A stretch of 64,000 nt of DNA from Patescibacteria group bacterium (GTDB taxonomy: Bacteria > Patescibacteriota > Microgenomatia > Levybacterales > UBA12049): contig JAMCZC010000002.1 of assembly GCA_023485865.1 (NCBI GenBank), positions 1,000-64,999 of the forward strand, read 5' to 3'. Both the position numbers and the translations under genes were made by a program. Within the stretch, counting starts at the first letter, position 1. Each line of letters starts with the position of its first letter. Below the pieces are notes generated by a model. It searched no databases. It was not told the DNA's origin and saw only the letters and a program-made list of their open reading frames with translations. Of this stretch, positions 401 to 48,624 are shown piece after piece.

Positions 401-1548
401 GGTTTAAAAGCTGGTATATGCAATATGTCCACGCCGATTATTTGCAGTATAACAAGAGCGAAAATGATAAACAATAAGCCGACAATAGCCGCCGTAAGCT
501 GTTCCCTTGCCCCCTTAAGCGCTTCGGGATTGCCTTGGGATGATAATATTTTGTAGCCGGAAATGATAATTAATAGAAGCGCAACTCCCCCAGAAATGCT
601 CAATATTAAACCGAAAGCCCAAGCAATAAAACCTGAAGGATTAGTAGAAATACTTCCTAATGCAGTTTTGCAACTGTCTCCAAAGCAATTGATTTGGTTA
701 AACTGGTCCTGCGTTGTTCCTTTTTGACAAGTAAATTTCTGGTAGTCGGCGTCCGGCAGGCAAACGTATACCCCGTTGCCACAAGAGTTAGCCTTACTCG
801 GGTCGCACTCGCCAGTGGGAACACACGTGTAGGTAGAATTTAATGTAGGGTGGGAGCATGTAGTACTGCCTGTGCAGGCCGGAGAGCATCCTGTATTGGG
901 GACAAAATTGCATTTGCCAATTGTATTAACTCCATCTATGAAGTTGGCGTAAGTTCCAGAAGCGTATTCGCAAATTAAATTACTGCAACATGTCGCTTGG
1001 GTTCCTGCACTGCCAATGCACCCTGTTTGATCTTGTTTAATGCAGTTCGGGACAGGAGGCCTAACAGGAGAACCTTTAGGGTACGCACACCACATTTTGC
1101 CCGCATTATCAAATGAATAACAATACCCTGAACCTGAACATGAGGCTGAACCATAGCCCCATGCAGAACAATCATGGGTGCTGGTGGGGCATCTTGGATC
1201 TCTGTTGGCGCAGTTATAGATAGGGACTGGTGGCGCACCAGTTTTATAAGCACAAAAATGTGCATTATTTTCAGTAGAAAAATAACAACCATTAAGTGTA
1301 TGGCAGTCATTAGCGGGGGTTGCGCTACTTGTTAAATCCTTGCAGTTAGGGTATAGGGAGGTATTTTGCGGGTTACAAGTACTGCTAGTTGGGCTGTTAA
1401 ATCCCGCATTTGGCCTGTTTGAACAGTCAGCTGCATTAGCCTTGCCTGAGAAAGAGGTTAAGAAAAAAGAAATAAAAAAAAATGAAAAAATGAAAATAAA
1501 TATCTTCCTCACACTTTTATCGTACCTTAAGAAATAAACAAAATGCAA
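397..1548 (-). CDS. Secreted Cys-rich protein with C-terminal TrbC/VirB2-like pilin domain (putative pilus-associated adhesin)
   Basis: 383 aa. N-terminal signal-peptide-like hydrophobic segment ending AN-AAD. About 300 aa with roughly 40 Cys, rich in G/S/T/N/P. The last ~80 aa repeat the two-helix-plus-basic-loop pattern of the downstream pilin gene (GFIAWAFGL...YKILSSQGNPEALKGAREQL...IVGLLFIIFALVILQI). 4-nt overlap with the 44..400 gene. Confidence 0.5.
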   Translation of the reverse strand: MHFVYFLRYDKSVRKIFIFIFSFFFISFFLTSFSGKANAADCSNRPNAGFNSPTSSTCNPQNTSLYPNCKDLTSSATPANDCHTLNGCYFSTENNAHFCAYKTGAPPVPIYNCANRDPRCPTSTHDCSAWGYGSASCSGSGYCYSFDNAGKMWCAYPKGSPVRPPVPNCIKQDQTGCIGSAGTQATCCSNLICEYASGTYANFIDGVNTIGKCNFVPNTGCSPACTGSTTCSHPTLNSTYTCVPTGECDPSKANSCGNGVYVCLPDADYQKFTCQKGTTQDQFNQINCFGDSCKTALGSISTNPSGFIAWAFGLILSISGGVALLLIIISGYKILSSQGNPEALKGAREQLTAAIVGLLFIIFALVILQIIGVDILHIPAFKP

Positions 1549-1572: not shown

Positions 1573-1959
1573 TTATGATTTTTGATTAATGAATGTTTTA
1601 CTTTTTCTGATAAGGCCCTGCAAAAGCGGCCCAACGATATTTGATTGTTTACTTAAAATTGTAAATTGGCTTTCGGTTAAATAGCCTACGTCTTTTGCAA
1701 TAAGTATAAAATTTTTAAGCTCGGATAATGAACCTTTTGCTAAATAATAAAACTGGACTTTTTCTTTATAAGTTTGCCTTCCAAACCCCTCCGCGATATT
1801 TGCAGTTATTGAAGCCGCAGCTCGTCTCATCTGGTCGATTAGCGAGTAGGTTTCTTCTCTTGGGAAATCTTTGGTTATTTTATATACCAAAACAACTAAT
1901 TCATGCCCCTCTTTCCATACGTTCAGATCGGTAAATGATTCAATCTTTCCGTTATTCAT
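1573..1959 (-). CDS. four-helix-bundle protein (23S rRNA intervening-sequence protein family, TIGR02436-like)
   Basis: 128 aa, all-helical. Sequence pattern (W..GHELVVLVYKITKDFPREETYSLIDQMRRAAASITANIAEGFGR...YYLAKGSLSELKNFILIAKDVGYL) matches my memory of this family. Confidence 0.55.
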   Translation of the reverse strand: MNNGKIESFTDLNVWKEGHELVVLVYKITKDFPREETYSLIDQMRRAAASITANIAEGFGRQTYKEKVQFYYLAKGSLSELKNFILIAKDVGYLTESQFTILSKQSNIVGPLLQGLIRKSKTFINQKS

Positions 1960-1996: not shown

Positions 1997-3382
1997 TTAC
2001 ACAGTAAATTTGAATCCGCGGCCTTTTACCGTTTGGATATGGTTTGGGGTATTGGGGTCGTTTTCTATTTTTTTTCTAAGCCTGAAAATAAGCTGGTCAA
2101 GGGCCTGGTTGGTAACTCCTGCAGTTGACTGCATATTTTCCCAAACTGCATTTATAATTTCTTCTCTTTCAATTATTTTTCCGGCATTTACGATAAAAAA
2201 TTTTAAGAGCTTAAATTCAGACGACGTAAGCTTATCCGAAATAACTAAATTCCCCTTTTTAACCTCATTGGAATTTTGGTCAAAAACAATCTTTTCATTT
2301 TCCGCCGAAAGCTTATTTTTTTCTAAAGCATAGTCTTTTAAAAGCGGAATCGTTAATTTGTTTTTGTCGATTAAACCAACGTTTTCAAGATAAGAAATGT
2401 CCTGATTGGCAAAATTTAAAAGCGTTAATAAGTTTTGTTCGAAAGGGTTTAGGCAGTTCCAAATGCCAAAAAGAGCGCTTCTTACGGGTTTTTGTTTAAG
2501 AAAAAACTCGCCCAGCTCCGAGCTAGACGCTAATGGTTGATTTTTGATTATTGATTTTTGATTATTGATTGTTAGAATTGCCTCCAAACAATGCCTGGTT
2601 AAATTTCCATGTCCTCCGGTTAAGGAAAGAACTTTCCCAAGCGTTTTCTTATCTATTTTTTTGCCTGTTACCTTTTCAAGATATGCAATTCTAAAATCAA
2701 GACCCGGTTTATCTAAAATAGGCAGGTACACAATTTTTCCTGCCATAAATTCGTAAAAATCTCCAAAAAATATAGGTTCAAAAATATCCTCCAGAGGTCT
2801 GGTTGCAGAAAAAACAACGGAAAAGCGGTATTTTGCCCTGTTTCTTAAAACTCTTAAGTTAGCGAAAAAATCAGCGGTTAAAGCGGGAACATATTCTTCG
2901 AACCTGTCTAAAAGGAAAACAATCGCAAGCTCTTTTTCTATGGCCAAAAAATCAATTGCCCTTTTTAGCCCCTGAAATAAAATCAACTCATCATTTAATT
3001 CGATGCTCTCTCTAAAAATTTTATTAACCGCGTCGTATTCATTTTCCATTTTTCTGCCTCTTAAAGAATCTAAAAGCCCTAGGAATATAAATTTAGTTGC
3101 GTCAAAAAGCGGTTTTTTTCTTATTTCCGAAAAATTTAAAAGCACAAAATGAAACCATTTTTGGTTTTCACCTAAATGTTTTAAGCGCACATTTCGGTTA
3201 TAAGCCAAGAGCCCTAAAAGGTTAGATCTTCCTATTCCGGGGACGCCAATTATTTGGCAGGAATTGCCCTCTTTAACAAAAGACAGAATTTTTTCAATCT
3301 CAGGAAATCTCGTATCTTCCGGATACAAAGATTCAAAATGAGAGGAATCGATTGTTAAATTGTTAAATTGTTTCATCTTCAT
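1997..3382 (-). CDS. Transcriptional regulator: N-terminal P-loop ATPase domain fused to C-terminal OmpR/PhoB-type winged-helix DNA-binding domain
   Basis: 461 aa. Walker-A-like GVPGIGRSNLLGLL near the N-terminus (Arg in place of Lys). The C-terminal ~100 aa has the OmpR trans_reg_C signature (FKLLKFFIVNAGKIIEREEIINAVWE...QALDQLIFRLRKKIE...IQTVKGRGFKFTV). Contains an in-frame 15-nt-period tandem repeat at 2536..2571. Confidence 0.55.
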   Translation of the reverse strand: MKMKQFNNLTIDSSHFESLYPEDTRFPEIEKILSFVKEGNSCQIIGVPGIGRSNLLGLLAYNRNVRLKHLGENQKWFHFVLLNFSEIRKKPLFDATKFIFLGLLDSLRGRKMENEYDAVNKIFRESIELNDELILFQGLKRAIDFLAIEKELAIVFLLDRFEEYVPALTADFFANLRVLRNRAKYRFSVVFSATRPLEDIFEPIFFGDFYEFMAGKIVYLPILDKPGLDFRIAYLEKVTGKKIDKKTLGKVLSLTGGHGNLTRHCLEAILTINNQKSIIKNQPLASSSELGEFFLKQKPVRSALFGIWNCLNPFEQNLLTLLNFANQDISYLENVGLIDKNKLTIPLLKDYALEKNKLSAENEKIVFDQNSNEVKKGNLVISDKLTSSEFKLLKFFIVNAGKIIEREEIINAVWENMQSTAGVTNQALDQLIFRLRKKIENDPNTPNHIQTVKGRGFKFTV

Positions 3383-3424: not shown

Positions 3425-3796
3425 TCAAATATTATTCCTTTTCCCTTTTAAAGTCAGGACGCTCGATCCGAATATTTTGGAAATTTCATCAAGTTCTGCC
3501 AAAATTGAATCTGCTTCCTCTTTCTCACCGTTACCTGTATCTCGCAATATCAAAACCCAAACCTTGCTTTCATTTGCCGACTTTAGAGAATGATGGAAAT
3601 AGTTCGTATAATCTTTCTTTGAACTTGCAGACTGGCCTTCTATGTAATTACCTAAAATACTTGTCCCGCTTCTTATTAATTGATCTCCGACAATTCTAGT
3701 TGTTTGGGACTTTTTACAATTTTCAACAAATTTAATAATCCTTAAAATAAGGCTATATAAACGTCTTTTAAATTCTCTTTCCCTATTATCTTTCAT
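3425..3796 (-). CDS. four-helix-bundle protein (TIGR02436-like), second copy
   Basis: 123 aa helical protein with the same family pattern (IVGDQLIRSGTSILGNYIEGQSASSKKDYTNYFHHSLKSANESKVWVLIL). It flanks the regulator on the other side. Confidence 0.5.
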   Translation of the reverse strand: MKDNREREFKRRLYSLILRIIKFVENCKKSQTTRIVGDQLIRSGTSILGNYIEGQSASSKKDYTNYFHHSLKSANESKVWVLILRDTGNGEKEEADSILAELDEISKIFGSSVLTLKGKRNNI

Positions 3797-29917: not shown

Positions 29918-31054
29918 ATGCAAAAAGATAGTATAAGTTTCAAAATTCCAGCAATACGCCTTTTCCAAAGAGAGACAGAGGGGAAAGCAATTTACGTAGG
30001 AGTTATTAAGGCTTCAGATTTATCTTCTCATCCGCAAGAAAGATTTAGGATTGCCTATTTTGACAGAGAAAACAAAAATGCAGGTTATCAAAGAAGACTT
30101 CAGGATAATAAAGTCGAGAAACTTAAGGAATTTATACTTAAAGAGACTAAGACCCCATTGTTCCCAACTGCAATATTAGTTAATTCAAGAGAAATGTTAG
30201 ATTTTAAAGAAATCTCTAAGGGGGTAGGAACACTTCATGTAAATGAGCCACTTTTTGTGATTGATGGACAGCATCGTGTTACAGCGTGGAGAGCAATTGT
30301 GGATGAAACCGATCTTGCGGATAAATGGAAGGATTATGAATTTCCAATTGTACTAATGAGCGGTTTTAAAATCCTAGAAGAGATGGAGCAATTTTATGTG
30401 ATAAATTCTAGGCAAACGAAAATCAAAACAGATCTGGTTCACAGCTTGCTACTTGAGTTTGAGAAAAAAGATGAGACTAGAAATTTAGTTAAAGAAAAAG
30501 ACAAATGGATACCTAGGGCAGTAGTAATAACAGAAAATTTAAACAAATCTGGGGCATGGAAAGATAGAATTGGTTACGATTCAGATAGCGATTTAATGCG
30601 AAAGACAAGAGTTATTCAGGCCACGTCAGTTGTCGGAGCTTTAAAGCATTTATTTGTAGGAAATAAAAAGTTATTTGACATAGAAAATCCTAAAATTGAC
30701 GAGTGGATAAAATTTCTAAATGATTATTGGGAAATTATTGCAGATATTTATCCAAATGCAGTTAACAATGCAAACGATTATTCGTTAATGAAGACGGTTG
30801 GAATAAATGTAATGCATATTTTACTAGCCGATAAGTCTTACGATTTAGGCTTAGGCATAGAACAAAAAGAGGAACTCTTAAAAAAAATGAGAGAAACTTT
30901 AGTTCGTGCTGCGATTAGCGATATCCCTGAGGATTTTTGGAGATCTGATGTTTCTAAACAAACAAGAGAGAGAGGAAGATATGCCGGAGCTTTTTCATCC
31001 TCTGCGGGACATAAGAGACTAGCCACAGCAATATTCATAAACAGATTTGATTAA
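29918..31054 (+). CDS. DGQHR-domain protein (DndB-like, ParB/sulfiredoxin-fold nuclease superfamily)
   Basis: 378 aa containing the eponymous motif FVIDGQHRVTAW, with the surrounding pattern of DndB/DGQHR proteins. No dndCDE or other partner genes nearby. Confidence 0.6.
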   Translation: MQKDSISFKIPAIRLFQRETEGKAIYVGVIKASDLSSHPQERFRIAYFDRENKNAGYQRRLQDNKVEKLKEFILKETKTPLFPTAILVNSREMLDFKEISKGVGTLHVNEPLFVIDGQHRVTAWRAIVDETDLADKWKDYEFPIVLMSGFKILEEMEQFYVINSRQTKIKTDLVHSLLLEFEKKDETRNLVKEKDKWIPRAVVITENLNKSGAWKDRIGYDSDSDLMRKTRVIQATSVVGALKHLFVGNKKLFDIENPKIDEWIKFLNDYWEIIADIYPNAVNNANDYSLMKTVGINVMHILLADKSYDLGLGIEQKEELLKKMRETLVRAAISDIPEDFWRSDVSKQTRERGRYAGAFSSSAGHKRLATAIFINRFD

Positions 31055-36640: not shown

Positions 36641-37180
36641 ATGTCAGTCTATACAAGATTTGGGGATAAAGGTAAAACTTCTTTATACGGCGGGAAAGCG
36701 GTTTCTAAAGGCAGTTTAAGAATTGATGCATATGGTAGTCTTGATGAATTAAATAGCGCGATAGGGGTTGTTCTTACCGAAATTCAAAACCCCGGCGTAA
36801 AAAAAGAGTTGTTGCTTATCCAAAACGACTTATTTGCAATCGGCGCAAGTCTTGCAAGCAACATGGAGAATAAAAAACTTGGAGAATATTTAAAAAAGAG
36901 GGTTAGGGATTTTGAAAAACAAATAGACAGCTTATCGGAAAAGCTTCCCGAGCTTATGAATTTTATACTTCCGGGAGGGGGAAAAGCGGGTTCGTTTTTG
37001 CACCTTGCAAGAACTGTTTGCAGACGCTCCGAAAGAAGGGTCGTTGAACTTTTGGAAAAAGAGAACGTCAATAAAGAAACGTTAATCTATATTAATAGGC
37101 TTTCGGACTTGCTTTTTACTTTCGCAAGATATATAAATTACCAAGAAAAGAAAAAAGAAATTATCTGGTCTTCCAGATAA
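36641..37180 (+). CDS. PduO-type ATP:cob(I)alamin adenosyltransferase
   Basis: MSVYTRFGDKGKTSLYGGKAVSKGSLRIDAYGSLDELNSAIG matches the PduO/MMAB N-terminal signature. Confidence 0.8.
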   Translation: MSVYTRFGDKGKTSLYGGKAVSKGSLRIDAYGSLDELNSAIGVVLTEIQNPGVKKELLLIQNDLFAIGASLASNMENKKLGEYLKKRVRDFEKQIDSLSEKLPELMNFILPGGGKAGSFLHLARTVCRRSERRVVELLEKENVNKETLIYINRLSDLLFTFARYINYQEKKKEIIWSSR

Positions 37181-37184
37181 AATC

Positions 37185-37330
37185 TTTCGGGTGAAGAGGG
37201 TGGAATTCCCTCGCTGTGCCGCAACTGTATAGTCAGAACCCCGTTCTGCAAAGCAGAATTTGCAGAGAAAAATCTTCCGAGCAGAAGTGCATTTTTATTT
37301 TACACAACTTCTCGGAATGGGGAGTTTTTT
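37185..37330 (+). promoter_or_regulatory. Candidate cobalamin riboswitch (B12 element) in 5' leader of gene 37332..38444
   Basis: Contains GAGGG-UGGAAUU-CCCUC (the GGUGnnAAnUCC hairpin of B12 elements). This is followed by GCUGUGCCGCAACUGUA, matching the conserved GCUGnnCCGCAACnGUAA junction, then AGUCAGAACCCCG resembling the B12-box AGYCMGGAGACCKGCC. Called from memory of the consensus; not verified by a covariance model. Confidence 0.4.
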
Positions 37331-38899: not shown

Positions 38900-41272
38900 A
38901 TGTTTTTACGAACTTTTTCTCTGGACAATTTGATGTCTCTTTTTATTTCCTTATTGATTGGTCTTTTTATTGCGGCCATTTTAGTTTTGCTTTTGGTTTT
39001 GCTGTCTTATGTTTTTGTTCTTTGGTATAGAAATAGAGACAGAGAAAGGCAGTCTTTAGAATCGACTCTTTTACAAGTTACTCTTCCCAGGGACAACGAG
39101 ATAAAAATCGATGCGGCAGAGCAGCTTTTTTCAAGTTTTGGCTCAATGAGAAAAGGCGGAAGGCTGTCTTTTTTAAAGCTTCAGCCCCATTTGTCTTTTG
39201 AAATTGTCGGAATGCCGGGAGATATCCGTTTTTACGTTAACACCCCTAATAAATTTAAAGATTTAGTTGAAAAACAAATAAACGGAGCATATCCTGATGC
39301 GGAGATTAAGGTAGTCGATGAAAAATCCCAGAAGCCGGGTTATGTCTTAGGCAACGAATATAATATTTTTGCCGACAATGCCAAGGTTGCTTTTGCAAGC
39401 CTTAGACTCAAAAGTTCAAACTACGCACCGATAAAAGTATTTAAGGATTTGCCAACAGACCCCCTGTCTTCAATTACTTCAGTTCTGGCAAAAATGACTT
39501 TGGGGGAGGGAGCGGCAATTCAGGTCTTAATCAGTCCTGCCGATTCAAAATGGAAAAAAATGGGAAGAAAGTACATTGCCAGAACAAAAAAGAACGAGTC
39601 AAATCCCGAGACGGCAAAGTATTCGGCAGATCCAAAAGAGCTTGAGGGAATAGAAAATAAAATAGGCAAACCCGGGTTTAATACGGTTGTAAGAATTGTT
39701 GTTTCTTCAAGCTCCGTGGAGGCTGCTTCTGCGCATCTTGGTAATATAACCAGTGCCTTTTCCCAATTTGACGGGGCAAATTCATTCACTAAAAACAAGC
39801 ATCGGTTTAAAGGAATGTTTATGACAGATTTTATCTATAGATTTTTGCCGATGAGAGGGCAAACGTCGGTTTTAACCAGCGAAGAATTGGCAACAATTTT
39901 TCATTTCCCAAATAAAAGTGTTTCAACGCCTCATATCTTTTGGATTTCCTCCAAAAGAGCACCTGCTCCGGCTCAAATTCCGGACAGCGGTTTATACCTT
40001 GGAATGAGTACTTTTAGAGGCTTGAGCAGGCCTGTTTATATGCAAAGAGATGACAGAAGAAGGCATATGTATGTAATTGGAAAAACCGGTGTCGGAAAAT
40101 CGGAATTTCTAAAAGATATGATTTTGCAGGATATTAAAAACGGGGAAGGGGTTTGTTTTATAGACCCTCACGACACAATAGACAAACTGTTGCCGCTTAT
40201 TCCGCCCGAGCGAGCCGAAGACGTAATCCTTTTTGACCCTTCGGATACCGACAGGCCGATGGGTTTGAATATGCTTGAGGCAAATACCGAATCGGAAAAA
40301 CATTACGTTGTCTCATCAATTGTCGGTCTTATGTACAAACTTTACGATCCCAATAAAACAGGTATTATCGGGCCTCGTTTTGAACACGCAATAAGAAACG
40401 CAATGTTAACCGTAATGTATGAAAAAGGCAGTACTTTTGTCGAGGTTGTAAGAGCTTTGACAGACGCAACTTTTGTCCAGGAGCTTTTGCCAAAAGTTCA
40501 GGACCCTATTATCAGACGTTATTGGACAGACCAGATTGCCCAGACTTCAGACTTTCACAAATCCGAAGTTTTAGATTACATTGTTTCCAAATTCGGCCGT
40601 TTTGTTACCAATAAAATGATGAGAAACATTATCGGCCAATCTTCCTCGGCTTTTGATTTTAGAAAAGTTATGGATGAGGGAAAAATTCTTTTAGTTTCTC
40701 TTTCTAAAGGGAAAATAGGAGAGGAAAATGCCAGCTTTTTAGGCTTAATTCTGGTCCCTAAAATTTTGGTGGCCGCAATGAGCAGGCAAGATATCCCTGA
40801 AGAACAAAGACGGGATTTCTTTCTGTATGTTGACGAGTTCCAAAACTTCGCCACTCCCGATTTTGCCCAAATATTGTCGGAGGCAAGAAAATACAGGCTT
40901 GATTTAATTGTTGCCAATCAGTTTATCGGGCAAATGGACGAAGAGGTTAAGAACGCAATTTTTGGCAATGTCGGAACGCTTGTTTCTTTTAGGGTAGGAG
41001 TAACGGATGCAAATTATCTTGCGCATGAATTCCAGCCGACTTTTACGGAAGCCGATTTAATCAATGTAGACGTCTACAATACTTATGTTAAAACAATAGT
41101 GCATAATGAACCGGTTACGCCTTTTTCTATGGATTTAACCCGTGATATGAGTAAAGAAAAAGATCTTGCCAATCCAAGAGTGGCAGAGTTAATAAGAGAG
41201 CTTTCAAGGCTAAAATTCGGTAAAGATGTCCGAACGATAGAAGGAGAAATTGCCCAAAGAGCCAGGCTCTAA
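38900..41272 (+). CDS. Type-IV-secretion coupling-protein-like ATPase (VirD4/TraG/TraD-VirB4 superfamily) with N-terminal TM anchor
   Basis: 790 aa. N-terminal TM helix. Walker A GKTGVGKSEF. Walker B FFLYVDEFQNF, followed by RKYRLDLIVANQFIGQ...IFGNVGTLVSFRV, the pattern seen after the DEF box in TraG/VirD4-type T4CPs. Subfamily cannot be settled by eye. Confidence 0.55.
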   Translation: MFLRTFSLDNLMSLFISLLIGLFIAAILVLLLVLLSYVFVLWYRNRDRERQSLESTLLQVTLPRDNEIKIDAAEQLFSSFGSMRKGGRLSFLKLQPHLSFEIVGMPGDIRFYVNTPNKFKDLVEKQINGAYPDAEIKVVDEKSQKPGYVLGNEYNIFADNAKVAFASLRLKSSNYAPIKVFKDLPTDPLSSITSVLAKMTLGEGAAIQVLISPADSKWKKMGRKYIARTKKNESNPETAKYSADPKELEGIENKIGKPGFNTVVRIVVSSSSVEAASAHLGNITSAFSQFDGANSFTKNKHRFKGMFMTDFIYRFLPMRGQTSVLTSEELATIFHFPNKSVSTPHIFWISSKRAPAPAQIPDSGLYLGMSTFRGLSRPVYMQRDDRRRHMYVIGKTGVGKSEFLKDMILQDIKNGEGVCFIDPHDTIDKLLPLIPPERAEDVILFDPSDTDRPMGLNMLEANTESEKHYVVSSIVGLMYKLYDPNKTGIIGPRFEHAIRNAMLTVMYEKGSTFVEVVRALTDATFVQELLPKVQDPIIRRYWTDQIAQTSDFHKSEVLDYIVSKFGRFVTNKMMRNIIGQSSSAFDFRKVMDEGKILLVSLSKGKIGEENASFLGLILVPKILVAAMSRQDIPEEQRRDFFLYVDEFQNFATPDFAQILSEARKYRLDLIVANQFIGQMDEEVKNAIFGNVGTLVSFRVGVTDANYLAHEFQPTFTEADLINVDVYNTYVKTIVHNEPVTPFSMDLTRDMSKEKDLANPRVAELIRELSRLKFGKDVRTIEGEIAQRARL

Positions 41273-41297: not shown

Positions 41298-41358
41298 AAA
41301 TTTAAATTCCTCGATTATTCTTGCCTAATTAAGAGCCATTTGTTAAAATCGTTTTGTT

Positions 41359-41431
41359 GGAGCTGTAGTTCATCGGTCAGAACGCGACTCTTATAAAGTC
41401 GATGCAGATGGTTCAACTCCATCCAGCTCCA
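41359..41431 (+). tRNA. tRNA with anticodon UAU (tRNA-Ile decoding AUA)
   Basis: Acceptor GGAGCTG/CAGCTCC. D-stem GTTC/GAAC. Anticodon stem-loop CGACT-CTTATAA-AGTCG with U33 and anticodon T-A-T. T-arm GATGG-TTCAACT-CCATC. Discriminator A. No CCA. Confidence 0.7.
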
Positions 41432-41523
41432 CAAGCAGATGTTCTTGCCTGCCCTTCCGAAGTTTTAACGAAGGAGGGGTTCGAACCCAAGCAGACGCAC
41501 CGCGTCAAACGCTGCTTCGCCTA

Positions 41524-42390
41524 TTAGAGTTCGGTAAGCGCGGCGCCTTCTTTGCTTTTTCCAACCTCTCCGACGTATTGAAGATATCTTTCGGTTGTTG
41601 AAAGTCTTTTGTGTCCTAAAACTTTGGACAAAACAATTAATGAAACGCCGTGTTTTAAGTGGTGGGCGACAAAAGTGTGCCTCAAATCGTTAACTTTCGC
41701 TTCTCTTATTTCTGCTAAGCGGAAATATCTTTCAACAGCCGTTCTAATATTTCTTATCAAAAACGGCTTGCCGGATTTTGTTATGAACAAATGGTCCTCT
41801 TTAACGCTTGGCCGAATATTCATGTACCTAGTTAAAGCTTCCCTGGCGCTTTTATTAAGGGGAACAATTCTGTCTTCATGCTTTTCAAAAGGAGCTATGT
41901 GCAGGCTGTCTTTGGTAACATCCGAAAGTCTTAAGTTTGAAAGCTCGCCGATTCTAATCCCCGTTTGTAAAAGAAGCTCTATAATTGCAAACATTCTCGG
42001 GTCGTTTTTTGCGGCGTCTCTTAATGCCCTATATTCTGTTGGGGTTAAGATTCGCGGGGGCGCCAGCTGATATTTGGGGTGGGATACCAAAAGGGAGGGG
42101 TCATCCGTAACGTATTCGTTTACTTTTAAAAATCGATAAAAGGTTCTGGTTGAATTTATTTTTCTTGAAATTGATTTAGGTGTATAGTTATCCTTGCTCA
42201 TTTTGGCTAGAAAAGCTTCGATGTCTTCCTTAGATACCTCGTGGACCTCGTTTCTTTGCAGTTCTTCCAGGAACGAAAGTAATTGGTCAATATCTTTTCC
42301 GTACGCAATTACGGTGGAGTTTGATTTATTATTTTCCTTTAAATATTTTTTAAATTCTTCGTGGGCATCGCGAAGCTTAATCGGCTTCAT
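41524..42390 (-). CDS. Tyrosine site-specific recombinase (XerC/XerD-like)
   Basis: 288 aa. N-terminal SAM-like core-binding domain. C-terminal catalytic residues within LRHTFVAHHLKHGVSLIVLSKVLGHKRLSTTERYLQY (H-x-x-R ... Y). Its size suits Xer better than a phage integrase. Lies ~90 nt from the tRNA 3' end. Confidence 0.7.
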   Translation of the reverse strand: MKPIKLRDAHEEFKKYLKENNKSNSTVIAYGKDIDQLLSFLEELQRNEVHEVSKEDIEAFLAKMSKDNYTPKSISRKINSTRTFYRFLKVNEYVTDDPSLLVSHPKYQLAPPRILTPTEYRALRDAAKNDPRMFAIIELLLQTGIRIGELSNLRLSDVTKDSLHIAPFEKHEDRIVPLNKSAREALTRYMNIRPSVKEDHLFITKSGKPFLIRNIRTAVERYFRLAEIREAKVNDLRHTFVAHHLKHGVSLIVLSKVLGHKRLSTTERYLQYVGEVGKSKEGAALTEL

Positions 42391-43849: not shown

Positions 43850-43891
43850 AGGGGGGAATTATAGCGCTGGAGTTACTATAAGTCAAATTAG

Positions 43892-43964
43892 TACCAGGGG
43901 CGAGGATCGAACTCGCGACCACCGGGATATGAATCCGGCGCTACTACCACTGAGCTACCCTGGC
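43892..43964 (-). tRNA. tRNA-Met (anticodon CAT; elongator-type, could alternatively be lysidine-modified tRNA-Ile2)
   Basis: Reverse complement: GCCAGGG-TA-GCTC-AGTGGTAG-TAGC-G-CCGGA-TTCATAT-CCCGG-TGGTC-GCGAG-TTCGATC-CTCGC-CCCTGGT-A. The 1:72 pair is G:U, not the C-A mismatch of initiators. Confidence 0.75.
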
Positions 43965-44024: not shown

Positions 44025-44340
44025 CACGCGGGGTAGTGTACAGTGCACGTGAGGCTTAACATAATGGGCCGTTTTGATAGTAATAACAAAACAGTATTCA
44101 GCTATATCGGTGAACTCCTAAAATTTTAGGACAATACCGAGGGAAGACTCGCCTAGGCGAGAACCCGTAGAGACTACACGCTGGGCCCCCCGATTAAATC
44201 GGGGGTGAAGATATAGTCCGACACTTCAAGTAATTGAAGAAACAGATGCATAATCTCACAGGCTAGGCGCAACTCCTAGCCCCGCAACACTTCGACTCAC
44301 TTACGTTCACTCAGTGTAAGCACTTTAAGAATGAAAAGAA
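44025..44340 (+). ncRNA. Candidate structured ncRNA or long structured murD leader (unclassified)
   Basis: ~320 nt with no ORF over 20 codons. GC content is clearly above the surrounding intergenic DNA. Promoter-like TGcTACAAT at 44009..44017. At least five strong hairpins, including CUUCAA-GUAA-UUGAAG (GNRA loop), CCCCCG-AUUAAAU-CGGGGG, GGCUAGG-CGCAACU-CCUAGCC and CUCGC-CUAG-GCGAG. Does not fit RNase P, SRP, tmRNA or 6S consensus by eye. Confidence 0.35.
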
Positions 44341-48106: not shown

Positions 48107-48138
48107 TCACAAAACTGCTATAATTGCCTCATAGGAAA

Positions 48139-48624
48139 ATGAAGACTTTAAGGATTAAGATTATACTTACTTGTTGGGAAAAAGAACTCGTATGGCGCGT
48201 GATTGAGATTCCTGAAAACAAAACGCTTCATCAGCTGCATCTTGCAATTCAGAAAGCATTTGGCTGGTACAACGATCATTTATATTCATTTTTCATGAGC
48301 AACAACAGGATGGATAGAAAGGGAGAATACACGAGTCCGGTTGACATTGAAGAAGCAGGAGAGGATGCGTTATCGGCAGCAGAAACAAAGTTAAAAGATT
48401 TGAACTTACAGTTAAAGAAAAAATTTCTCTACCTCTATGATTTTGGTGATAATTTAGATCATGAAGTAGAAGTGGTAGGCTTTGGTGAAACGGACGACTT
48501 CCATAAATATCCTCAACTCATAGGCGCATTCGGCGCAGCGCCTGAACAGTACGCAATCCGGCGAGCAGGTATGGAAGAGACAGAGAATGAGAAGTCCCCA
48601 AAATATACAGAAGAGAAAAATTAG
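48139..48624 (+). CDS. pRiA4b ORF-3-like family protein
   Basis: LHQLHLAIQKAFGWYNDHLYSFFM...YLYDFGDNLDHEV. The W..DHLY.F core matches my memory of this family. Start moved to MKTLRIK. Confidence 0.45.
   Translation: MKTLRIKIILTCWEKELVWRVIEIPENKTLHQLHLAIQKAFGWYNDHLYSFFMSNNRMDRKGEYTSPVDIEEAGEDALSAAETKLKDLNLQLKKKFLYLYDFGDNLDHEVEVVGFGETDDFHKYPQLIGAFGAAPEQYAIRRAGMEETENEKSPKYTEEKN

Follow-up and report, generated by a model that had tools for sequence, protein, structure and literature searches.

The tRNA-Ile(UAU) locus

The window (the whole 64-kb stretch of DNA that was analyzed) groups with relatives among the Levyi-, Gottesman- and Curtissbacteria, i.e., with the Microgenomates group, and carries a gene for tRNA-Ile with the anticodon UAU at 41359..41431 on the + strand. 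Upstream of the tRNA lies its conserved neighbor, a gene at 38900..41272 (+) whose 790-aa product is identified by Pfam and NCBIfam as a VirD4/TrwB-like type IV coupling protein and which is syntenic in 19 species genomes. A consensus scan picked out a promoter-like site, TTGCCT-17-TAAAAT with a TG-extended -10, at 41321..41349 (+), which ends 10 nt 5' of the tRNA and is, as a consensus match only, a candidate promoter for it; its -10 region aligns colinearly with TTTGTTACAAT of the related contig L251. On the other side of the tRNA, convergent with it, a gene at 41524..42390 (-) encodes a 288-aa Xer-like tyrosine recombinase (Pfam Phage_integrase plus a SAM-like N domain). An earlier reading of this DNA, the sequence-only reading, had placed the recombinase ~90 nt from the tRNA, and the measured distance from the tRNA 3' end to this opposite-strand gene is indeed 91 nt. 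The order TrwB - tRNA - Xer - DivIC - tRNA-Met/initiator - MurD - Tgt is conserved over many species.

Structure and identity of the tRNA

ARAGORN assigns a tRNA-Ile to 41359..41432 (+), with the anticodon tat at position 34, and Rfam model RF00005, for which the gathering score is 29, matches 41359..41431 with 67.8 bits (E = 1.3e-12), the top tRNA score in the window. The MFE fold is a perfect cloverleaf with stems of 7/4/5/5 bp at -25.4 kcal/mol (z = -3.6), and none of 200 shuffles folded equally well. As read from the sequence, the anticodon loop is C32 U33 U34 A35 U36 A37 A38, with TAT at 41392..41394, and this loop (CUUAUAA) has all of the anticodon features of bacterial tRNA-Ile, namely NAU, A35, U36, A37 and A38. 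The acceptor features listed by Silva et al. 2006 (A73 and a pair other than C3-G70) are present as well, in the form of discriminator A73 and the Ile-type pair A3-U70; the tRNA also has U12-A23, and CCA is not encoded. Among the UAU tRNAs compared, of which there were at least 117, A73 occurs in 113/117 and a non-C3-G70 pair likewise in 113/117. Across 19 syntenic orthologs, double compensatory changes are seen in 14 of the 21 stem pairs, with one cell broken.

No other anticodon register was predicted for this tRNA, and both a pseudogene and a shifted register were rejected on the results from ARAGORN, Rfam, the cloverleaf fold and the covariation among orthologs. These same results bear out the claim of the sequence-only reading that a genuine UAU-anticodon tRNA lies at 41359-41431, including the register of its loop, since ARAGORN confirms the tat anticodon. 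As judged from these features, the gene specifies a genuine tRNA-Ile, which is predicted to be charged with Ile and to pair directly with AUA.

AUA codon usage and meaning

AUA is a sense codon in this genome and is read as Ile. Its usage, which had been suggested as a check, proves to be heavy: AUA makes up 23.4 per 1000 codons and 30% of the Ile codons in the window ORFs, where it is more frequent than AUG. At 298 aligned ATA positions, the residues found in orthologs are I (58%), V (22%), L (8%) and M (1.3%), which is the profile of ATT/ATC; ATG positions align with M in 60% of cases. The assignment of AUA to Ile follows from the alignment of ATA sites with Ile, Val and Leu in orthologs, and reassignment of the codon was rejected on this substitution profile.

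Distribution of UAU tRNA-Ile genes

UAU tRNA-Ile genes have the reputation of a rarity; a 2026 preprint still terms them "rare cases", and the sequence-only reading held them to be known from a few reduced genomes. In a scan of one genome per species, true tRNA(TAT) genes were found at no fewer than 119 loci, many of them from CPR lineages and some from Bifidobacterium (L070, L088); at least 116 viral contigs (of 120 among the matches listed) carry such a gene as well. The scan pattern fixed positions 30-40 and the T-loop; the uniform loops are therefore a product of the search itself, and the counts represent minimum numbers.

Ninety-five complete CPR/Patescibacteria genomes were also cross-tabulated from Table S2 of PMC13011429, which counts tRNAs by amino acid and not by anticodon, such that the identification of the second Ile tRNA in these genomes as the UAU type is our inference. 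Two or more non-CAU Ile tRNAs are present in 45 of the 95 genomes. Two or more Ile tRNAs go together with at most two CAU tRNAs in 40/95, and a single Ile tRNA goes together with three or more CAU tRNAs in 50/95; a second Ile tRNA and a third CAU tRNA occur together in five genomes, which means that redundancy does exist in CPR, and no genome lacks both. The reciprocity between the second Ile tRNA and the third CAU tRNA is thus nearly perfect (Fisher p = 1.2e-21). All 12 complete Microgenomatia belong to the class with at least two Ile tRNAs and no more than two CAU tRNAs, and the three-CAU signature marks about half of the complete CPR genomes, e.g., 33/36 Saccharimonadia. The counts of species loci, viral contigs and complete Patescibacteria given above do not support the notion of rarity for this lineage, and UAU tRNA-Ile is the normal arrangement in this CPR branch.

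Decoding of AUA without lysidine

In most bacteria, AUA is read by the lysidine system, which consists of tRNA-Ile2(CAU) and TilS. The task of that system, AUA-specific decoding as Ile, is the same as the one considered here, but it is accomplished by modification of C34 in a CAU anticodon, whereas the window tRNA has UAU and offers no C34. We think it rather likely that the functional tRNA-Ile(UAU) stands in place of tRNA-Ile2(CAU) and TilS as the dedicated AUA decoder of this Microgenomates-group bacterium, and that its gene is a replacement allele with the scar of the native gene beside it and no resident mobile element. Under this interpretation, the UAU anticodon would pair directly with AUA and the tRNA would fill the role that tRNA-Ile2(CAU) and TilS hold in most bacteria. 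By analogy with the Mycoplasma and Bacillus tRNAs described below, U34 is probably left unmodified and accepted by IleRS, and misreading of AUG would be kept low because U34-G pairing on the cognate ribosome is weak in itself and because tRNA-Met competes.

The tRNA-Ile2(UAU) of Mycoplasma mobile (Taniguchi et al. 2013, PMC3575796) shares with the window tRNA a genomically encoded UAU anticodon, A37/A38, the meaning of AUA as Ile and a small genome, and the lineage of the window is probably also without tRNA-Ile2(CAU). Experiments on M. mobile established that tilS is lost, that U34 is unmodified, that IleRS is adapted (Arg865) and that binding on cognate ribosomes is specific for AUA, with exclusion of AUG (PMC3575796), whereas for the window such traits are presumptive. 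M. mobile is also one species within a tilS-positive clade, whereas the arrangement described here extends to 12/12 complete Microgenomatia and to about half of the complete CPR genomes. In Bacillus subtilis, the delta-tilS suppressor tRNA1-Ile(G34U) (Kohrer et al. 2014, PMC3919564) demonstrates that a UAU tRNA-Ile suffices for AUA in the absence of lysidine, and provides a precedent for an unmodified U34 that combines strong binding to AUA with weak binding to AUG; this suppressor is a laboratory mutant of tRNA-Ile1, whereas the window tRNA is encoded by a natural, long-conserved and separate gene. Bifidobacterium and Neorickettsia are further examples of tilS-less bacteria with a TAT tRNA, but their solution is bound to a eukaryote-type IleRS2 that was acquired horizontally (PMC3575796). 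An IleRS adapted to U34 would be of this IleRS2 type or have Arg/Lys at the position of E. coli W905 (R865 in M. mobile); no IleRS gene was found in the 64-kb window or in the fetched loci. We regard the window as a probable further case of AUA decoding of the M. mobile type, a kind that is already known.

It is unlikely, in our judgment, that U34 instead bears a specific modification that enforces the reading of AUA only, be it the pseudouridine familiar from eukaryotic tRNA-Ile or one not yet described. Wobble uridines are nearly always modified (PMC3919564), Taniguchi et al. left the possibility open for M. suis (PMC3575796), and the use of AUA far above the level of a rare codon, at 23.4 per 1000, would create a high pressure for fidelity. 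Against this stand the two bacterial UAU tRNA-Ile molecules analyzed to date, in both of which U34 is unmodified (PMC3575796, PMC3919564), and an archaeal mutant tRNA that had a modified U34 and read AUG as well (PMC3919564); nor is a candidate enzyme encoded near tRNA-Ile(UAU). We give about as little credence to a broader proposition, by which the Microgenomates and about half of the CPR lineages would do without TilS and lysidine and read a heavily used AUA codon with a UAU tRNA, would discriminate between AUA and AUG by some undescribed means (a U34 modification of a new kind, or an adaptation of IleRS or of the ribosome that is peculiar to CPR and unlike that of Mycoplasma), and would have a tRNA gene that can be swapped between lineages beside a conserved Xer-type recombinase.

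The window is one case of a pattern that runs across a large uncultured radiation, in which UAU tRNA-Ile sits at a fixed chromosomal site and AUA is used more than AUG. Should the absence of tilS be confirmed, no other natural group that decodes AUA without lysidine would come near the CPR in size, and the CPR would be a good place to study how U34 escapes the reading of AUG.

Fate of TilS and tRNA-Ile2(CAU)

TilS is usually seen as essential and near-universal, being found in 98% of surveyed bacterial genomes (PMC6063277). The 64-kb window encodes neither a PP-loop protein nor anything TilS-like, as judged from an SGGxDS motif scan and Pfam searches of essentially all ORFs, and the gene upstream of ftsH in the window is trpS, not tilS/hpt. 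When the same motif scan was applied to ~0.9 Mb of fetched loci, its hits were limited to a PP-loop protein of Mycoplasma and a single chance match, and a search for literature tying CPR/Patescibacteria to tilS or lysidine found nothing relevant.

The two CAU tRNAs of the window are both of the Met or initiator type, and neither is of the Ile2 type. The first, at 43891..43964 (-), was found by ARAGORN and Rfam, has the loop UUCAUAU and A73, and falls into the Met class by the criteria of Silva et al. (C3-G70, A4-U69, G5-C68), as the sequence-only reading had supposed for a CAU tRNA at 43892..43964; syntenic orthologs are present in L052, L243 and L248. The second, at 44027..44288 (+), is split by an intron into exon 1 (44027..44056, +) and exon 2 (44249..44288, +), and has the initiator features C1xA72, G2-C71, C3-G70 and A29G30G31/U39C40U41, along with an atypical D-loop and T-loop and with U11-A24 where the bacterial initiator has A11-U24. 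By these sequence features, the two neighbors are an elongator-type tRNA-Met and an initiator-like tRNA; in annotation, the CAU tRNAs of such genomes should not be forced into the Ile2 class.

The sequence-only reading took the UAU tRNA to imply the loss or absence of tilS, which is plausible: the loss of tRNA-Ile2(CAU) and TilS from the lineage of the window appears likely, because 40 of the 45 genomes with two or more Ile tRNAs, including 12/12 Microgenomatia, have at most two CAU tRNAs. Class-level data of this kind suggest that the genome has no third CAU tRNA, in which case TilS would be useless to it. A redundant arrangement, in which tilS and a lysidine-type tRNA-Ile2(CAU) would also exist elsewhere in the genome and the UAU tRNA would supplement the decoding of AUA, has precedents, since some bacteria retain both tilS and a TAT tRNA and such redundancy has been proposed for Lactobacillus casei/plantarum, Cyanothece and Ferrimonas (PMC3575796). 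The five complete CPR genomes with at least two Ile and at least three CAU tRNAs speak for it too, and the window represents 64 kb of the genome. We nevertheless hold redundancy to be quite improbable, given the limit of two CAU tRNAs in every complete Microgenomatia genome, the classification of both CAU tRNAs of the conserved locus as Met and initiator, and the absence of a TilS-like protein from the window and from the site beside ftsH.

A probable replacement allele and the scar of the native gene

Immediately downstream of the intact tRNA are two pieces of a second tRNA-Ile(UAU) gene, which were detected by eye and by BLAST against the tRNAs of relatives. Piece 1, AGATGTTCTT at 41437..41446 (+), corresponds in an alignment with L251 to native positions ~42-51 (AGATGTCCTT). 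Piece 2, GGTTCGAACCCAAGCAGACGCAC at 41478..41500 (+), covers the stretch between the T-loop and the very 3' terminus of the tRNA. The pieces are separated by a 31-nt insertion at 41447..41477 (+), which is predicted to form a hairpin with an 8-bp stem, is absent from L251 and had no BLAST match in any fetched locus. In a search of 444 tRNAs, the best full-length BLAST matches of piece 2 were all to tRNA-Ile(tat) (E = 5e-4 to 2e-3), and in 8/10 metagenome contigs, L251 included, an intact tRNA-Ile(tat) at this locus has precisely these 23 nt as its 3' terminus. The scar thus begins 5 nt 3' of the intact gene and preserves ~33 nt of the native 3' end, and 32/33 of these nucleotides are identical to the native allele, which implies that the truncation was recent.

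The closest relative, L251 (TrwB 95% and Xer 94% identical), has the native allele only, within colinear flanks. The intact tRNA of the window is 90-93% identical to those of L016 and L065 and only 74% identical to that of the nearest relative L052; across relatives, similarity to the remnant follows species relatedness (rho 0.55, p 0.014) and identity to the intact tRNA does not (rho -0.04). Because the allele represented by the remnant is intact in a 95%-identical relative, we interpret the present tRNA-Ile(UAU) gene as a foreign allele that recently replaced the original copy of the lineage. In the proposed course of events, a complete allele of the type found in more distant Microgenomates would have taken the place of the first ~41 nt of the native gene, of which the last ~33 nt would survive as a scar next to the conserved gene for the Xer-like recombinase. 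Such a scar would be a dated example of tRNA gene exchange between lineages. No donor with matching flanks emerged when the tRNA flanks and the 31-nt hairpin were compared by BLAST with all fetched loci; the matches were to the tRNA itself only.

Alternatively, the intact gene and the remnant could go back to two tRNA-Ile(UAU) genes that once stood in tandem in a distant ancestor and were lost differentially between lineages, with no horizontal replacement. Both allele types do occur at the same TrwB-adjacent locus in different Microgenomates, and the failure to find donor flanks in the fetched loci is compatible with such a history. Two copies were seen in none of the ~29 syntenic relatives examined, however, and a tandem pair would require long-term retention of both copies in the lineage of the window alone; the colinear, native-only locus of the closest relative and the recent truncation indicated by the remnant also count against it. 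We hold a tandem origin to be quite improbable and favor horizontal replacement.

Phages were considered as a source of the replacement allele and rejected: an allele-specific 25-mer is absent from the viral contigs, and the best viral tRNA(TAT) among the matches listed is 81% identical.

The Xer-like recombinase and its neighbors

The sequence-only reading raised the possibility that the tRNA is a mobile-element attachment locus. What stands of this suggestion is a past recombination event at exactly tRNA-Ile(UAU), as follows from the native-tRNA scar 5 nt downstream; what does not stand is an element, in view of the conserved syntenic Xer gene and the lack of an element, of att repeats and of a composition shift. 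The Xer-like protein gives full-length alignments to the XerC/XerD models TIGR02224 and TIGR02225 (172.1 and 171.8 bits; cut-offs ~330) and to the XerA model NF040815 (161.8 bits; cut-off 220), with all scores below the equivalog cut-offs. Its gene keeps its syntenic position in no fewer than 11 species, with identities of 43-83% (94% in L251), and has diverged in step with housekeeping genes. No direct repeats were found in the 36-48 kb region of the window, the last 25 nt of the tRNA have no further copy in the whole window at up to three mismatches, and GC content is flat.

Known integration sites in tRNA genes, with an attL tRNA and an attR 3' fragment, likewise present an intact tRNA followed by a 3' fragment in direct orientation, with a tyrosine recombinase alongside. 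Here, in contrast, the gap between the intact tRNA and the main remnant is 46 nt, too short to accommodate an element. The intact gene represents a different allele throughout; its two acceptor strands pair with each other as parts of one allele, which shows that it is no native/foreign hybrid. The recombinase is a syntenic Xer-like protein with full-length matches to XerC/D/A models. The segment that would be bounded by the two copies holds no cargo, the remnant being 5-46 nt away, and at the homologous site of many relatives Xer, DivIC, MurD and Tgt are all in place. The VirD4-like gene upstream could be taken as a sign of an element, but homologs of this coupling protein are ordinary chromosomal genes that are widespread in CPR (bioRxiv 10.1101/2025.01.22.634366). 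In other species, the TrwB-tRNA-Xer interval does contain variable cargo, and 5/20 have the tRNA in inverted orientation. That the tRNA is now part of an integrated element, or the attachment site of one, with the tyrosine recombinase 91 nt away as its integrase and the attR-like 3' copy as its far end, is very improbable and largely refuted by the synteny of the genes from TrwB to Tgt. As read from this conservation, the Xer-like recombinase is a chromosomal neighbor of the tRNA and no part of a resident mobile element.

A group I intron in the initiator-like tRNA(CAU)

The initiator-like tRNA(CAU) is a third AUN-box tRNA of the window that was missing from the sequence-only reading. Its 192-nt group I intron lies at 44057..44248 (+), at position 33/34, and is recognized by Rfam RF00028 with 78.8 bits. 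None of the closest relatives examined (L027, L052, L068, L243) has the intron, and the spliced tRNA is 100% identical to the intron-less tRNAs of L027 and L068. Nakagawa et al. 2026 (PMC13011429) described a group I intron at 33/34 of tRNA(CAU) in Microgenomatia, in the same unusual 70-nt tRNA and at the same insertion site, and their Table S3 lists this tRNA and intron for two complete Microgenomatia genomes; the intron of the window does not differ substantively from theirs and is a further example.

The tRNA-Ile(UAU) gene and its neighbours

ARAGORN calls a tRNA-Ile(tat) gene at 41359..41432 on the + strand, and the Rfam tRNA model matches 41359..41431 (+) with 67.8 bits, the top tRNA score of the window. 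Unaided folding of 41359..41431 yields a perfect cloverleaf (z = -3.6), in which the anticodon loop reads directly as C32-U33-U34-A35-U36-A37-A38 with TAT at 41392..41394; no other anticodon register came from ARAGORN, Rfam or folding, and the sequence-only reading of a real UAU-anticodon tRNA at this place is borne out. The discriminator is A73 and CCA is not encoded. Met and fMet tRNAs carry C3-G70, and Ile tRNAs carry G3 or A3 with C70 or T70 (Silva et al. 2006, PMC1635315); by these criteria the A3-U70 pair of the window tRNA is of the Ile type. A degenerate pattern that combined the UAU anticodon arm with the T-arm, run against a single genome of each species, matched at least 120 stretches, and a true tRNA(tat) is present in at least 119 of the fetched species-genome loci. 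Positions 30-40 were fixed by the pattern, so their uniformity among the matches is uninformative; 113 of 117 UAU tRNAs among the matches listed lack C3-G70 and have A73. Synteny with the window, i.e., the same VirD4/TrwB-like gene adjoining and usually the same Xer-like gene, was found in 20 loci among the matches listed. Across 19 syntenic orthologues, double compensatory changes occur at 14 of 21 stem pairs, with hardly any pair broken, which shows that selection maintains the gene as a tRNA.

The tRNA(CAU) at 43891..43964 (-) has the elongator-type pairs C3-G70, A4-U69 and G5-C68, which upholds the earlier assignment of 43892..43964 to Met. A third gene for the AUN codon box, absent from that earlier reading and missed by ARAGORN, is a split, initiator-like tRNA(CAU) at 44027..44288 (+), with C1xA72, G2-C71, C3-G70 and A29G30G31/U39C40U41. 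It is interrupted between U33 and C34, a classical fMet intron site, by a group I intron of 192 nt (Rfam, 78.8 bits). Without the intron the sequence is 100% identical to that of unsplit tRNAs in two species-representative genomes (L027, L068), and close species thus differ in whether they have the intron; two complete Microgenomatia genomes are already listed with the same tRNA and intron (PMC13011429 Table S3). With the neighbouring CAU tRNAs being of Met and initiator-like type, the locus encodes Ile(UAU), Met and initiator-like tRNAs and no Ile2(CAU).

The initiator-like exons (44027..44056 and 44249..44288, +) splice to 70 nt, with a 5-nt D-loop without G18G19, a 4-nt variable loop, the T-loop CGCAACU without T54-Psi55, and U11-A24 instead of A11-U24. 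This odd form is kept in Microgenomates relatives (L011 5558..5628, L027 5873..5942, L052 4752..4821, L068 1792..1861), and a similar 70-nt tRNA lies in a Pirellulales tRNA array (L013 6062..6131). The anticodon stem of the elongator tRNA-Met ends, at its bottom, in a conserved A31-C39 mismatch (window 43891..43964 (-); L052 4611..4685; L011 5336..5410); U38 (loop UUCAUAU) is common to the window and L052, between which there is a compensatory change at 28-42.

Use and decoding of AUA

In the 62 predicted genes of the window (19,169 codons), ATA occurs at 23.4 per 1000 codons vs 16.8 for ATG and makes up 30% of Ile codons. Opposite window ATA codons, orthologues, counted only where their own codon is not ATA, have I at 58%, V at 22%, L at 8% and M at 1.3% of 298 aligned positions, a profile indistinguishable from that of ATT/ATC; ATG sites align with M at 60%. 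Here AUA is thus an Ile codon like the others and a common one, for which an efficient decoder is needed.

Direct reading of AUA by such tRNAs has been documented. In M. mobile, U34 of tRNA-Ile2(UAU) is unmodified and position 37 is t6A; an IleRS adapted at Arg865 charges the tRNA, which on the organism's own ribosome binds AUA but not AUG (PMC3575796). U34 is likewise unmodified in the UAU tRNA of B. subtilis delta-tilS suppressors; the binding of this tRNA is strong to AUA and weak to AUG, and it causes misincorporation at ~1e-3 (PMC3919564). By analogy with these two cases, U34 of the window tRNA-Ile(UAU) would pair directly with the A of AUA, and AUG would for the most part be kept out, through the weakness of U-G pairs on the cognate ribosome and through competition by the elongator tRNA-Met encoded next to it. 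The dedicated U34 modification that the sequence-only reading had thought necessary is unlikely. The window shares with the M. mobile type a UAU tRNA-Ile, AUA used as Ile and Ile-type identity features, and on this analogy its AUA decoding is probably of the same, TilS-independent type.

Distribution and the lysidine system

Published accounts give tRNA-Ile(UAU) in 19 species in tRNADB-CE, report nine tilS-less species with it (PMC3575796) and, in a 2026 preprint, term it "rare cases"; TilS was found in 98% of surveyed bacteria (PMC6063277). Taniguchi et al. noted 371 unique metagenomic tDNA-Ile(TAT) sequences of unknown origin (PMC3575796). The rarity assumed in the sequence-only reading does not hold: beside the at least 119 species-representative loci, many of them CPR, 116 of 120 viral contigs among the matches listed carry tRNA(TAT). 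It is the scale of the UAU arrangement that has been less appreciated, and the searchable literature still terms such tRNAs rare.

As a proxy for tilS, we cross-tabulated Table S2 of Nakagawa et al. 2026 (PMC13011429), which covers 95 complete Patescibacteria genomes and nowhere mentions UAU, tilS or lysidine. ARAGORN labels all CAU tRNAs "Met", and "Ile" is possible only for GAU/UAU-type anticodons; the table gives no anticodons, and that the second Ile tRNA is UAU is our inference. At least two Ile with at most two CAU tRNAs are found in 40 of the 95 genomes, one Ile with at least three CAU in 50, both at least two Ile and at least three CAU in 5, and neither in 0, a near-perfect reciprocity (Fisher p = 1.2e-21). 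All 12 Microgenomatia and all 7 Dojkabacteria belong to the first class; among 36 Saccharimonadia, 34 have one Ile and at least three CAU tRNAs (33 with three, one with four) and 2 have both. Absence of tRNA-Ile2(CAU) is thereby supported at class level, and a UAU tRNA-Ile seems to be the norm among Microgenomates and in roughly half of the complete CPR genomes. No PP-loop protein is encoded within the 64-kb window. The position upstream of ftsH is a frequent site of tilS-hpt in Firmicutes and other phyla; here it holds trpS. Taken together, the cross-tabulation and these two features of the window sequence make it likely that the organism lacks the lysidine system; tilS and a TAT tRNA are known together in other bacteria (PMC3575796).

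On the viral (IMG/VR) contigs, 33 listed loci have at least five tRNAs. tRNA(UAU) also lies inside dense arrays of 8-35 tRNA genes in Planctomycetota MAGs (L006, L009, L010, L013, L028, L063), Chitinophagales (L034) and Mycobacterium sp. (L039), some with 4-base anticodon calls; they resemble arrays of some bacteria and phages.

Probable replacement of the native allele

The 91-nt spacer 3' of the tRNA holds GGTTCGAACCCAAGCAGACGCAC at 41478..41500, whose best matches are the 3'-terminal 23 nt of tRNA-Ile(tat) genes (E = 5e-4 to 2e-3 against 444 tRNAs), with 21/23 identity to L052, the nearest genome relative among the matches listed. As predicted beforehand, an intact tRNA-Ile(tat) ending exactly in GGTTCGAACCCAAGCAGACGCAC occupies the same locus in 8 of 10 contigs of the metagenome scan. 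The closest relative among the matches, L251 (an 863-kb contig; TrwB 94.9%, Xer 93.8% and DivIC 92.4% identical), carries only this native allele. Its flanks are colinear with the window, in which the last ~33 nt of the native gene are left as AGATGTTCTT (41437..41446) and the 23-mer, separated by a 31-nt hairpin insertion. The intact window tRNA is 90-93% identical to the genes of two species genomes (L016, L065), though TrwB there is only 65-69% identical, and only 74% identical to the L052 tRNA. Across species, relatedness goes with similarity to the remnant (rho 0.55, p = 0.014) and not with identity to the intact tRNA (rho -0.04). By these alignments the intact tRNA and the native one are different alleles. 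They are most simply explained by the arrival of a complete foreign tRNA-Ile(UAU) in place of the first ~41 nt of the native gene, once this lineage had parted from that of L251. Neither a donor with matching flanks among the fetched loci nor a phage copy of the allele on the viral contigs was found.

Two metagenome contigs, L242 (Ga0172372_10045191, 3255..3331) and L250 (Ga0172373_10055128, 673..749), carry a tRNA(CAU) whose anticodon loop is CUCAUAA, whose acceptor stem has G3-C70 (Ile2-like) and whose last 27 nt are exactly those of the native tRNA-Ile(UAU) allele; it is possibly a lysidine-type tRNA related to the UAU one. Neither contig has matches to the proteins of the window.

The Xer-like gene and the genomic setting

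The 288-aa tyrosine recombinase at 41524..42390 (-) is Xer-like, with full-length matches to XerC, XerD and XerA models below their equivalog cut-offs. Many species share the gene order TrwB-like, tRNA-Ile(UAU), Xer, DivIC, tRNA-Met/initiator, MurD, Tgt, the identity of Xer (43-83%; 94% in L251) rises and falls with that of its housekeeping neighbours, and VirD4-like genes are a normal part of CPR chromosomes (bioRxiv 10.1101/2025.01.22.634366). No element, repeat pair or composition anomaly was found in the window, and a resident mobile element is therefore rejected; of the proposed attachment locus, what stands is past recombination at the tRNA, as recorded by the native remnant. The TrwB-tRNA-Xer interval ranges from 7 nt to 2.6 kb across species with differing cargo; in 5 of 20 syntenic loci (L027, L040, L041, L068, L069) the tRNA lies in reverse orientation to TrwB. 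A ~360-aa ORF (start MRIAF..NxRHV..) recurs in the interval (L018 5653..6726, L054 5532..6689, L100 3254..4330); small or unrelated ORFs are also found there (L103 3456..4122, L100 6578..7072, L043 4518..5699).

The gene complement of the window is of the usual CPR housekeeping kind, with MurD, Tgt, TrpRS, FtsH, PBPs, a VirD4-like ATPase and T4SS pilins, glycolytic enzymes, tmRNA/SmpB and a class II RNR that has a B12 riboswitch, at a flat GC of ~39%. The most protein-similar relatives are labelled Levyibacteriota, Gottesmanbacteria, Curtissbacteria or Microgenomates, all within the Microgenomates group. The Microgenomates TrwB-tRNA-Xer block also occurs in MAGs labelled "uncultured Gammaproteobacteria" or "Candidatus Bathyarchaeia archaeon" (L003, L018, L027, L042, L069, L100, L114 and others), probably through taxonomic mislabelling or bin contamination. 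The end of a cobalamin adenosyltransferase gene overlaps an AdoCbl-II riboswitch (37171..37251, +; 46.4 bits). Downstream of the riboswitch is a 394-aa ORF without a Pfam match, and the B12-dependent class II RNR and NrdR are encoded nearby. A 461-aa protein with a winged-helix regulator domain at its C-terminus lies between two "23S rRNA intervening sequence" family proteins (1573..1959 and 3425..3796, -). A DndB-like (DNA sulfur modification-associated) protein (29918..31054, +) stands alone between the PGK and GAPDH genes, and a plasmid pRiA4b ORF-3-like protein (48124..48624, +) is encoded directly upstream of trpS-ftsH.
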